This document shows positions 1 through 3,000 of a stretch of 27,909 nt of DNA, piece after piece. The stretch comes from a virus. Lineage: Duplodnaviria; Heunggongvirae; Uroviricota; Caudoviricetes. The first letter of the stretch is position 1. Every line of letters starts with the position of its first letter. Made by a program: the position numbers. The stretch lies in IMG/VR virus record IMGVR_UViG_2541047965_000002. One strand, written 5' to 3'.

Positions 1-3000
1 ACTGCTCGTTAGCCCATGAATAACAATCAGAAAGTACCATAACAGACCCGAAGAAAATGAAATATAAGAGAAGATCAACGGGTGAGGAAAAAGTTCAAAA
101 AATCGCTGCCGGGGAGGAAGGAAACTACCGGATGGAAAGAGTCCCCCTAAAGCAGACTGACAGACATCACAAATCCCCGGGTGGGGATTTGTGTATAAGA
201 GACAGCTTACTAGGGGGGCTTTTTTATCATCATCTAAAAATGCCATGTGAGTTGCAGAAATAGATTCAATATCTGTAAGCTTTGCAGAGCAATTGTTTCC
301 GAACTGGGATTCTAAATATTTTATTACTGCGTTTCTTACTGCATTTGCATGAGGGCGTAATTCTTTGTGTTTTTTAAAAAACTTTTTTACCTCATTTGGA
401 AGTTTGCGGGTTGCTCCAGCTGATGCGATCCCCTTATCACACCCAAGAGCTGCGATGAAATATGCAGCAGCAGACTGTCCCGTAGTTTTGTTGATGAAGC
501 TTAAGTAGCTTAATTCTGTTTTTTGAACATCATCAGCTTGGTGATATTGATAGTATAAGTGAAAATTTATTTTTGCAGCTTGGTTAATATTATTTAACTC
601 CAGATGTATCATTTCTTCTGGCTCGAGTTTTTCGCTAATTGTTACTCCATTCGTTTTTTTTATCATAGCTACAAGAAAATATCTGATGCCTGCTGAAATA
701 TAATCAGTAAAAACAATGTATCCTCCAGAAGACCAAGATTGAGATTTGGCTGAATGATACATTTGTTCCATTATTTTCTTTGTTAAGTTAATAAAGTCAA
801 TAGATTGAGAAGTTGCTGTTTGGTGATACTGATCAAATAATACCGGGATTGGACCTTGTTCTTTTGGGGCGCTTTTGAATACACCGTAATGTGCTGAGTT
901 GCCTTTAGAGCCATAAAGAGCAACGACCCCTTCAACAAGGGAAATTACAACAGCGTTTGTTTTATCAAGTTCAGAATCACGCAGGTTGTATCGTTTCGAG
1001 TGGTCAAAATCTTTATCTTTCTCTTTTAATAGCTCGTGAACAATAACGTGGTTGATTTTTAGGTTTGGCATTTTTTTCGTTTTTGTTGGGGACAATATAG
1101 GTTGTATGAGGATAATAAAAAGTTAACGCGTACGCAAAAACTATTGTATCGTGTTAAGAGTGGTTACTTCGCCACACAGCTTAAACCCGCCGTCGAGCGG
1201 GTTTTGTCGTTTCTGGGGCTGGGGATTCGTTGGTCCTGGCCTATTCCGCAGTTGTCCATCGGTTCGGCTTCTTTGACGTTTCCGCTTCTGATTTGCGGTA
1301 CATGATGTTCCCTCAATTTGCACCTGCTGTATCAGCGAGGTGAGAGATAACTACAAATGCCTCATAACCCAAATACCTGGCTGGAGTTGGTCCAGAGCTG
1401 GTGGCGTGGAGACACACCGCTGGGCGCAGTGATTATGTCGATTGTTATGGCTGGTTTACGTATTGCCTATTTTGGCGGTGGTGGCGGCTGGAAGCGAAAA
1501 ACACTCGAAATTCTACTCTGTGGCGCTCTGACGCTGACTTTTGCATCCGCTCTTGAGTATGTCGGATGGCCTAAATCACTATCTGTTGCCATTGGTGGTG
1601 GGGTGGGGCTGATCGGTGTTGATGCTATTCGTGGGGCTGCAATGAGAGTAATCGGTAACAAGTTTGGTGGCTCTAAGGAGTAATTTATGCAGGTACTAAA
1701 TTCCCAGCGTAAAGCTTTCCTGGATATGGTGGCATGGTCAGAGGGAACGGATAACGGACGGCAGAAAACCAGAAATCATGGTTATGACGTCATTGTTGGC
1801 GGAGAGCTATTTACCAATTACTCCGATCATCCTCGCAAACTTGTCACACTAAACCCGAAACTCAAATCAACAGCCGCAGGCCGTTATCAACTTCTTTCAC
1901 GCTGGTGGGATGCTTACTGTAAACAGCTTGGTTTGAAAGACTTCTCCCCCAAAAGCCAGGACGCTGTGGCACTGCAACAGATTAAAGAGCGTGGCGCTTT
2001 GACGATGATTGATCGCGGCGATATTCGTCAGGCAATCGACCGTTGCAGCAATATATGGGCTTCTTTGCCGGGCGCTGGTTACGGTCAGTATGAACATAAA
2101 ATTGGTGACCTGATTGCCAGGTTTAAAGAGGCTGGTGGAGTGATAAATGAAGTTGAGCTATAAGCTGGTTATCGCTGCATTCTTCGTTACTGTCATTGGT
2201 TCTTTTATCTGTTCAGTGAATCATTACCACAATAAAGCCATTGAATACAAAAAGCAGCGTGATGAGAATGCTATGGCATTAGATTCGGCTATGGCGACCA
2301 TCGCTGATATGCAGAAGCGTCAACGTGATGTAGCAGAACTCGATGCCAGATATACAAAGGAGTTAGCTAATGCGAAAATCACTATCAGTAATCTGCGTAG
2401 GGATATTGATGCTGGCCGTAAGCGGCTGCGGGTCAAAGCAAACTGTTCAGCAAACGGAGCGACCGGCACCGGTGGCATGGGCGATGCTTCCTCCCCCAGA
2501 CTTACTGACTCCGCTGAACGGGATTATTTCGCCCTTAGAGAGCGAATCGTCACAGTGACGAAGCAAGTCAGCTATCTTCAGAGCTATATCAAGGGACAGT
2601 GCCAAAAATGATATAGTGGACTATAGCCTTCATTAAAGGATAGGATGCTATATTATGTCCTGAAGGAGATGTCAGAATGGGAAATATAGATCCATTATCA
2701 TTAGTGACTACAATGGTTAGTCTTAATTTGAATGGCGTGCAAGTTTCACAGGGAACAGGGTTCTTTTATCAATCTATTGAAGAACAACTTTTATTCTTGG
2801 TAACAAATTATCATGTTGTCACCGGACATAGCCCACAATCAAAAGAATCGCCTTTAGGTGACTCAATTTCCTTCAAAGTTAGGGTGAAATCAGGTGGCAG
2901 CAAAACCATTGAGATTCCTCTTTTTAAAAACGGCAAACCAACTTGGCTTCAGCATGCAAGTGAGAAAAATGCTGATATAGCAGTAATTCCATTGTTTGGA

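Follow-up and report, generated by a model that had tools for sequence, protein, structure and literature searches.

A close and well described counterpart of the element treated here is IS50 of Tn5 (1534 bp), an insertion sequence whose transposase requires only the 19-bp end, whose insertions are flanked by a 9-bp target duplication and whose preferred target fits the consensus A-GNTYWRANC-T. In IS10 and IS50 the transposase gene is said to be shielded by structures confined to transcripts that come in from outside; publications by Kleckner and Reznikoff reportedly describe fold-back inhibition in IS10 and an occluding structure in IS50 read-through transcripts. ISEc13, an element of which the literature searched contains incidental mentions only as regards its biology, shares with IS50 a homologous full-length transposase, 19-bp ends, and GATC sites within the presumed -10 region that precedes the transposase gene. 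It is distinct in being slightly longer (1550 bp), in making mostly 8-bp target duplications and in the strong subterminal hairpin of its 165-nt leader.

The window, i.e. the whole stretch of 27,909 nucleotides analysed (Caudoviricetes record IMGVR_UViG_2541047965_000002), begins inside such an element. Over its positions 1-205 all 205 bases agree with the transposase-proximal ISEc13 end as found in many genomes, E. coli E2348/69 among them, the matched loci being those that RefSeq names 'IS4-like element ISEc13 family transposase', and the similarity spans the 165-nt leader up to and into the transposase start codon. In the reference copy (L002 1656-3205, 1550 bp) the RefSeq CDS WP_000244363.1 starts at the base equivalent to window 40, with the translation MVLSDCYSWANEQ... 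Among the 5,426 complete genomes of E. coli surveyed, 1685 contain the ISEc13 end, at up to 31 places each and 2,238 places in all. Window 1-205 is the end of ISEc13, a natural insertion sequence of the IS4 family and IS50 subgroup; the element here is one already known, with no detectable difference in terminal repeat, hairpin, leader or transposase start. What distinguishes this copy from ISEc13 elsewhere is its position inside a prophage NA37 gene, which is absent from all other records searched. The visible part amounts to 205 bases, and the other end lies outside the window. Our preferred reading, to which we assign a probability of about 0.9, is that this ISEc13 end was transposed into the prophage NA37 gene and that its hairpin is a modified remnant of a terminator-like structure of the insertion sequence. 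The features are as follows.

1-205, minus strand: transposase-proximal ('left', OE-like) 205 bases of ISEc13, placed by identity and a three-way alignment, the remainder lying beyond position 1.
1-40, minus strand: start of the ISEc13 transposase gene (ATG at 40-38), of which 13 codons and 1 nt precede its exit from the window.
73-98, minus strand: conserved promoter-like block, from the aligned leaders of about 30 relatives.
106-155, minus strand: second, imperfect hairpin of the leader's minimum-free-energy structure, contained in a 71-nt insertion peculiar to ISEc13.
168-193, minus strand: subterminal hairpin with perfect 11-bp arms (168-178 and 183-193) and loop 179-182.
187-205, minus strand: ISEc13 19-bp terminal inverted repeat CTGTCTCTTATACACAAAT, counterpart of the IS50 outside end (17/19).
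206-213, no strand assigned: CTTACTAG, one predicted copy of the target duplication, taken as 8 bp on the model of other ISEc13 copies.
206-1071, minus strand: truncated gene for a prophage NA37-family nucleoid-associated protein, codons 1-288 plus 2 nt of 376.

The window holds 13 codons of the transposase gene, and the domain and motif tests were run on the reference copy. Its transposase matches the Tn5 transposase structures in the PDB over the full length (E = 2e-82) and contains Pfam domains PF14706 (Tnp_DNA_bind) and PF01609 (DDE_Tnp_1) above their curated cut-offs, with PF02281 (Dimer_Tnp_Tn5) just short of its own (25.5 bits vs 26.7). The Y-2-R-3-E-6-K motif is invariant in the transposase alignment A2 (Y316, R319, E323 and K330). 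By analogy, the 19-bp end is the presumed binding and cleavage site of this Tn5-like DDE transposase. Read on the minus strand, CTGTCTCTTATACACAAAT differs at two positions from the Tn5 mosaic end CTGTCTCTTATACACATCT, with the first 16 bases identical, and likewise at two positions from the IS50 outside end CTGACTCTTATACACAAGT (both sequences as given in PMC2566895, the outside end also confirmed in a real IS50R copy, L119). This reproduces the 17 of 19 agreement with both ends reported in the sequence-only reading, whose 16 contiguous identical bases hold for the mosaic end, and its judgement that such a match is very unlikely by chance is likewise upheld, since a mosaic-end match at three or fewer mismatches arises in 0/100 shuffles and the chance expectation for the outside end has a mean of 0.01. 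The likeness of the 19-mer to the Tn5 ends is one of homology. The IS50-type terminal repeat (5'-CTGTCTCTT...) is present at the ISEc13 left end within the window, positions 1-17 of the 19-bp end are invariant or nearly so among 25 distinct relatives, and the ISEc13 right end (L002) is identical at 19/19 positions to the IS50 inside end of a real IS50R copy. The motif TTATACACA inside the 19-bp end presumably fits the DnaA-box consensus, which we take to be TTATNCACA. The interior of the element had been placed toward position 1, correctly, the transposase gene running leftward on the minus strand.

The 16 bases held in common with the tagmentation mosaic end had also raised the prospect of a laboratory junction, in which genomic DNA would have been linked either to a Tn5/Nextera mosaic-end adapter or to an engineered mini-Tn5. 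This is refuted by the 205-base identity to ISEc13, in which the 186 bases adjoining the 19-bp end are natural leader and transposase start, by the lack of the three mosaic-specific bases, end positions 17-19 being AAT where the mosaic end has TCT, and by the absence of the adapter tails CCGAGCCCACGAGAC and GACGCTGCCGACGA across the window. The identical end is moreover present in about 1,700 complete genomes, and we leave an artefact of this kind a probability close to nil. Since E. coli commonly harbours natural relatives of IS50, sharing 16 bases with the tagmentation mosaic end is compatible with a genuinely biological origin.

Six E. coli prophages (H1-H6) with an uninterrupted NA37 gene match window 206-1300 at 99.9-100%, and their similarity ends exactly at 205/206 (0/6 extend into 1-205), where the three-way alignment switches cleanly from insertion sequence to prophage sequence. 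In this lambdoid E. coli prophage the gene has the gene for antiterminator Q on one side and the lysis genes on the other, and its intact allele matches Pfam PF04245 (E = 3.5e-46, profile positions 1-320 of 325). The idea that the interrupted gene is part of a known defence system was rejected, PADLOC giving 0 hits for NA37 or its 406-aa neighbour, for which Pfam likewise gives none. The window copy retains residues 1-288 of 376, all identical to the intact allele (288/288), followed by a 99-aa tail encoded by the insertion sequence. The proposal that the terminus of an IS4-family element cuts the NA37-like gene near codon 288 is therefore supported by the comparison with homologous prophages free of the insertion, the cut falling after 288 codons and 2 nt. 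So is the companion proposal of a chance-open read-through: no stop codon interrupts the frame between 1071 and position 1, but its IS part is in a frame other than that of the transposase, and its continuation into the IS leader is fortuitous. This openness is also what would commend the contrary view, that the resemblance to Tn5 arose by chance within genuine NA37 coding sequence and the open frame is a real protein. The intact alleles, however, have wholly different sequence to the left of the 205/206 boundary and comprise 376 codons, the match to the insertion sequence extends beyond the short motif, and the chance expectation of the 19-mer is about 0; we consider this the least credible of all the explanations. 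The insertion deletes the last 88 NA37 codons and puts in their place about 99 codons of IS leader that happens to be open, and from this loss and replacement the gene is almost certainly inactivated. For the window the result has annotation value only: 205/206 is an IS junction, and what looks like one long open frame, 1-1071, represents a disrupted gene and not a protein.

The 30-base junction sequence has no exact match in GTDB genomes, JGI metagenomes or IMG/VR, the junction is absent from all complete E. coli genomes searched, and the contigs encoding the neighbouring holin have uninterrupted or different cargo loci, with no second junction among them; the junction therefore rests on one assembly. 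Together with a window that begins inside a multicopy repeat, and with the many IMG/VR contigs that likewise stop 44-200 nt inside ISEc13 ends, this is what might be seen if a repeated IS end had been misjoined to a prophage contig, leaving the NA37 gene not truly interrupted. Yet the break is at the exact last base of the insertion sequence, and CTTACTAG together with the adjoining GGGGG (214-218) conforms to the target half-site of ISEc13, N8-(A/G)-GGGG. This half-site flanks most independent insertions and has a background of about 5%; among 20 distinct left flanks 75-85% have G at outward positions 10-13, and among 15 distinct right flanks 67-87% do. As a random misjoin would not give both the exact break and the half-site, we regard a chimera as very improbable. 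A real insertion predicts a second junction, ...GCATGAGCTCTCTTACTAG/CTGTCTCTTGATCAGATCT..., duplicating CTTACTAG; 8-bp duplications occur in 4/5 of the complete ISEc13 copies that have a duplication. The start of the window is probably an assembly break inside the multicopy repeat. That a solo end or a decayed ISEc13 fragment is present instead of a complete element appears unlikely: decayed copies are known, e.g. the O157:H7 copy L003 (1445 bp, with a split transposase gene), and the window shows nothing left of position 1, but its 205 bases are identical to those of intact, multicopy elements, whereas the O157 remnant has three differing positions.

The hairpin belongs to the insertion sequence and not to the NA37 gene. 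Its arms, CACAAATCCCC (168-178) and GGGGATTTGTG (183-193), form a perfect, GC-rich 11-bp stem with a CCCC/GGGG core around a 4-nt loop and overlap the 19-bp end by 7 bases. These arms are as first noted in the sequence-only reading, in which they were part of a longer inverted repeat (157-178 vs 183-205), an extension that proves weak, adding only a few scattered pairs. The region has a calculated folding energy of -26.8 kcal/mol as RNA (z = -6.2) and -12.6 kcal/mol as DNA (z = -5.3). A simple promoter/terminator scan of 1-205 makes no call of either kind, and Rfam offers no family for window 1-1400 at E up to 1.

The nature of this hairpin is suggested by its counterparts in related elements, for which 497 loci are on record. 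Of 33 distinct non-ISEc13 left ends, 25 have a hairpin between the 19-bp end and a promoter-like block, TTGAAC...GATCNGATC, mostly of 12-13 bp (range 9-14) and beginning within IS nt 13-16, at nt 16 or close to it. All but one or two of these 25 (23-24) have 6-9 consecutive T immediately 3' of the stem. The structure is absent in the remaining 8/33 and is therefore dispensable. In these relatives the order is thus 19-bp end, GC-rich covarying stem-loop, T-run, TTGAAC-N16/17-GATCNGATC and transposase start codon. The window has TTGAAC, the presumed -35 element of a putative promoter, at 93-98, and 16 nt downstream, at 73-76, GATC in the place of the GATCNGATC of relatives; the corresponding position in IS50R, at its transposase promoter, is occupied by GGATCTGATC. 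Covariation in the stem is pronounced (alignment A3): 95.6% of cells are paired, compared with 39-61% in slid controls, and double-sided changes number 51, compared with 15.9 +/- 3.1 in shuffles, none of the 500 shuffles attaining 51. The 21 G-U/U-G cells in the stem would be A-C mismatches on the opposite strand, which places the structure on the transposase-sense strand. The structure in relatives has the shape of an intrinsic terminator on the sense strand, just upstream of the putative Dam-site-containing promoter. Stem-loop and T-run would most likely stop transcription arriving from flanking host genes, and transposase expression would then rely on the element's own promoter alone. Like the devices of IS10 and IS50, this would be a transposase-proximal structure formed only in transcripts that enter from outside; unlike them it has a terminator shape upstream of the promoter and does not occlude the ribosome-binding site, the ISEc13 hairpin being about 125 nt from the ATG.

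ISEc13 itself departs from this pattern. In the alignment its minus-strand arms, AAATCCCC/GGGGATTT, fall on the stem base of the covarying hairpin of relatives; ISEc13 has retained this stem base with a shortened apex and has 71 nt inserted between stem and T-run. This insertion, seen against the closest relatives, those of Scandinavium and Pantoea, corresponds to about window 101-171. The hairpin is followed by the tail AUGUCUGUC in place of an adjacent U-run, and the displaced T-run, 71 nt off, lies at window 97-102 on the minus strand, 3 nt past the second hairpin. Because the insertion parts stem from T-run we read the hairpin as a modified, probably weakened remnant of the terminator-like structure, and because no U-run adjoins it we class it as terminator-derived and not as a terminator.

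The missing U-run could also be taken to mean that the hairpin acts as DNA, being bound by a host factor or by the transposase or forming a cruciform that aids synapsis of the ends, instead of being an RNA terminator or its relic; the 7 bases held in common with the 19-bp end, and the location of the other ISEc13 end within a perfect 13-bp palindrome, point the same way. In relatives, however, the stem sequence is free to vary while pairing is kept, which fits a structure better than a sequence-specific protein site. The wobble cells and the T-run, moreover, are found on the transposase-sense strand only, and it is established that the 19-bp end suffices for the Tn5 transposase. We accordingly judge a role as DNA to be rather improbable and retain the view that the hairpin derives from a terminator.

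The terminator and target patterns seen across the family are side observations. ISEc13 prefers the target CCCCT-N8-AGGGG, with an 8-bp duplication, unlike the Tn5 consensus. Insertions of the ISEc13 clade lie at the apex of terminator-like palindromes, the duplications (8-10 bp) being centred on the apex 25-45 nt beyond stop codons. Dyad-symmetric, hairpin-forming targets are likewise used by IS231A (GGG-N5-CCC), IS1397/ISKpn1, ISRm22 and group IIC introns, and the clade resembles these palindrome-targeting elements also in that its sites are often at gene ends. Group IIC introns insert next to terminators. IS1397/ISKpn1 and ISRm22 insert in REP elements (PMC1525189). The ISEc13 clade differs from all of these in its IS50-subgroup transposase, in targeting varied terminator-like hairpins and not a single repeat family, and in its 8-10-bp duplication across the apex. 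Shape-based or terminator targeting in the IS50 subgroup has no description in the searchable literature, including the text of an IS4-family review, although ISfinder entries may record it. We suggest only tentatively, with the odds somewhat against it, that the ISEc13/ISPpr3-like branch recognises DNA by shape, and that its own transposase-proximal terminator insulates the transposase and could replace the destroyed host terminator. A putative terminator close to the end and directly upstream of a presumed Dam-site promoter, and insertion at terminator-like hairpins, would bear on how transposons control their own expression and choose harmless landing sites. The idea that the ISEc13 hairpin mimics the element's own target was rejected, the hairpin being CCCC-N4-GGGG and the target CCCC-T-N8-A-GGGG (N10). 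In a small sample, the terminator-bearing end of the insertion sequence is oriented toward the upstream host gene at 6 sites vs 3, with 8 further sites lying between convergent genes.

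The first 205 nucleotides of the window are the end of a known insertion sequence, ISEc13, lying at a new but unremarkable site. Taken alone, they find 100% matches in many genomes, annotated as 'IS4-like element ISEc13 family transposase', which supports the primary proposal of the sequence-only reading, an IS4-family terminus. Matches occur in 1,685 of 5,426 complete E. coli genomes; the number of places in one genome reaches 31, and the EPEC strain E2348/69 has 29. The reference copy in that strain (locus L002, 1656-3205), adjoining mog, is 1,550 bp long, and its transposase gene, reading away from the tip, begins at the counterpart of window base 40, confirming that the element interior lies toward position 1. 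The features at this end of the window are as follows.

1-205, minus strand: left (transposase-proximal) end of ISEc13, comprising, from 205 inward, the 19-bp tip, a 165-nt leader and transposase codons 1-13
73-98, minus strand: promoter-like block of ISEc13, placed from the aligned leaders of its relatives
168-178 and 183-193: perfect arms of an 11-bp stem with a 4-nt loop
187-205, minus strand: 19-bp tip, reading CTGTCTCTTATACACAAAT
206-1071, minus strand: prophage NA37 gene, interrupted at 205/206

At three mismatches or fewer the Tn5 mosaic end has a single site in the window, 187-205, with two mismatches (0/100 shuffles), and the IS50 outside end likewise has its sole site there, again with two mismatches, so that the 17/19 agreement first noticed stands for both. 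The two reference sequences were verified in PMC2566895, and the IS50 outside and inside ends were also read from IS50R itself, in a copy carried by a Salmonella plasmid (L119). At its far end ISEc13 reads CTGTCTCTTGATCAGATCT, identical to this inside end at 19 of 19 positions. The 457-residue ISEc13 transposase aligns from end to end with the Tn5 transposase of known structure (E = 2e-82), has the Pfam domains Tnp_DNA_bind and DDE_Tnp_1 above curated cut-offs and Dimer_Tnp_Tn5 slightly under (25.5 bits, cut-off 26.7), and its Y-2-R-3-E-6-K signature is invariant in 14 relatives. By these comparisons the Tn5 likeness of 187-205 is due to homology and not to contamination. Neither a Nextera tail nor a second IS end is found anywhere in the window, and the alternative initially entertained, a laboratory transposon or adapter junction, is refuted.

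A megablast of window 1-1300 against the 5,426 genomes identifies six with 99.9-100% identity over 206-1300; in none does the match extend into 1-205. These genomes carry an uninterrupted 376-codon 'nucleoid-associated protein' gene between the Q antiterminator and holin genes of a lambdoid prophage, providing the comparison with uninserted prophages that had been proposed, and a three-way alignment places a clean IS/prophage switch at 205/206. The intact allele belongs to the NA37 family (PF04245, E = 3.5e-46, profile positions 1-320 of 325). Over 288 codons and 2 nt the window copy does not differ from it, and then it passes into IS sequence, the truncation at about codon 288 that the sequence-only reading had predicted. 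Should the part of the element beyond position 1 match the reference copy, the frame would run on past the junction for 99 codons, to a stop at IS nt 296 (counted inward from the tip). Since this frame differs from that of the transposase, the apparent read-through is chance, as was first supposed, and the gene loses its 88 C-terminal residues. The same gene has been independently hit by IS1A in E. coli FT130 (genome H5, NZ_CP040090.1).

The exact junction is absent from GTDB genomes, JGI metagenomes, IMG/VR and complete E. coli genomes, and the window starts within a multicopy repeat, as might be the case had an assembly chimera wrongly joined an IS end to the prophage contig at 205/206. This is argued against by the position of the break at the very last IS base and by the flank, CTTACTAG followed by GGGGG, which fits an ISEc13 target half-site. 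Many IMG/VR contigs, like the window, start or stop 44-200 nt inside ISEc13 ends (L005, L006, L009, L018, L021, L022, L027, L029, L033, L036-L038), a mark of short-read assemblies that break off in a multicopy repeat, and this suggests an assembly break at window position 1.

The ISEc13 target is a symmetric CCCCT-N8-AGGGG, a strong preference evident at L002, L011, L017, L020, L023, the IMG/VR loci L004-L038 and window 206-219. Outward from either end the flanks read N8, mostly A, then GGGG, with G at outward positions 10-13 in 75-85% of 20 distinct left and 67-87% of 15 distinct right flanks, against a background of about 5% for GGG in such a span. Complete copies have duplications between inverted CCCCT and AGGGG, e.g. 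GCCCCT[GTTTATGC]AGGGGC, that are mostly 8 bp, whereas those of IS50 are 9 bp, and one copy lies within the mog terminator hairpin. The window insertion, in coding sequence, uses an imperfect version of the target, AGCTCTCT-TACTA-GGGGGGCT followed by T6. Among relatives of ISEc13, duplications of 8, 9 or 10 bp (one of 13, one of 6) flank about 24 of the roughly 32 non-redundant complete copies. About 70% of these duplications are centred on a perfect palindromic stem 7 bp or longer, compared with 0.4% of 6,200 centres drawn at random from the same flanks (palindrome apex: L046, L051, L054, L070, L071, L074, L076-L083, L088, L092, L093, L097). Typical targets look like bidirectional terminators, e.g. 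AAAGGCCA[CCTTCGGG]TGGCCTTT, and lie 25-45 nt past the stop that closes a long ORF; with respect to the upstream gene, orientation has no clear bias, in numbers too small to tell. No account of hairpin-apex targeting by ISEc13-like elements was found in the searchable literature, which does not in itself prove novelty.

The hairpin first noticed beside the tip is confirmed in its perfect 11-bp arms, and its folding energy is -26.8 kcal/mol as RNA (z = -6.2) and -12.6 kcal/mol as DNA (z = -5.3); the longer inverted repeat claimed, 157-178 against 183-205, adds merely a few scattered pairs. We fetched 80 loci encoding transposases at 44-99% amino-acid identity from Enterobacterales, Vibrionales, Alteromonadales and others, and extracted their ends. 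A hairpin directly follows the 19-bp end in 25 of 33 distinct non-ISEc13 left ends, mostly of 12-13 bp (range 9-14) and beginning at about IS nt 16 (nt 13-16) with AAATCCC, and in nearly all 25 it is followed by T6-9 and then GAACT. Over nine upper pairs in the alignment of these 25 ends, 95.6% of cells are paired, falling to 39-61% when partners are slid as a control, and double-sided changes number 51 against 15.9 +/- 3.1 in shuffles (0/500 as high). G-U or U-G occurs in 21 cells, where the opposite strand would have A-C mismatches, and the T-run is present on the transposase-sense strand alone. A role at the DNA level fits this covariation and strand asymmetry less well; the structure in the relatives has the form of an intrinsic terminator that would meet transcription coming from outside. 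Rfam has no family for the hairpin. Two elements of this otherwise gammaproteobacterial clade lie on short contigs of unrelated MAGs (L060, Sedimentisphaerales; L087, Desulfocapsaceae), which could reflect horizontal transfer or binning error; the L060 stem begins at nt 13 and ends in TTTGTG, like that of ISEc13.

Immediately after the terminator T-run the relatives have a conserved TTGAAC, with GATCNGATC 16-17 nt further (leaders of L041-L108). This block is similar to the IS50 transposase promoter region with its Dam sites, in which GGATCTGATC stands at the corresponding place; the ISEc13 block retains a single GATC. Dam methylation at the IS50 site reportedly controls the transposase promoter (the Reznikoff literature). 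From this order and the likeness to the IS50 promoter, the arrangement may be read as end, insulating terminator, own promoter, leader and transposase. Only such family-level patterns, the end-proximal terminator, Dam-site promoter and hairpin-apex targeting, might repay more work.

The relatives nearest to ISEc13 are from Scandinavium (77% amino-acid identity) and Pantoea (73%). Aligned with them, ISEc13 retains the stem base (AAATCCCC/GGGGATTT) with an apex 8 nt shorter, and two T-to-G differences lengthen the stem by CAC/GTG to 11 perfect pairs. An insertion of 71 nt, lying precisely between GGGGAT and TTTTTTGAACT, folds as a second, imperfect hairpin (IS nt 51-100), with the displaced T-run 3 nt after. 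The ISEc13 hairpin has no adjacent U-run and is therefore not called a terminator; the window hairpin is best read as a derived and probably weakened remnant of the family terminator. At the far end of the element, beyond the window, lies a perfect 13-bp palindrome (L002 1656-1688, GTCTCTTGATCAG / CTGATCAAGAGAC), preserved in many relatives; the final codons of the transposase gene form its inner arm, and most of the stop codon falls within its 5-nt spacer.

The Q-holin slot, into which the element has inserted, holds antisense cargo that differs between prophages (window 206-1071 with its missing left neighbour; L001 2496-4866; L122-L131). In some it is NA37 paired with a 404-406-aa protein; others have a KAP NTPase or an SDH-type protease, among further types. 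Neither Pfam nor PADLOC matches the 406-aa partner of NA37, and the pair could form an uncharacterised accessory or defence module, disabled by the IS. This cargo parts the Q gene from window 1115-1205, a segment conserved at 87-98% identity in many lambdoid phages (lambda, 434, Stx2 phages, SfII) and closed by a terminator-like hairpin (1183-1204) immediately before the holin gene. Q probably acts on this segment, as the late-promoter and early-terminator region. The window ends in a 112-codon tyrosine integrase remnant with the Arm DNA-binding domain only (27571-27909), adjoining a gtrA/gtrB/DUF6056 O-antigen-modification cluster (24655-27169). Other E. coli genomes (L120, L121) have the same remnant next to the vat toxin gene, and in strain UID2309220013 an ISEc13 copy abuts the same gtr cluster.
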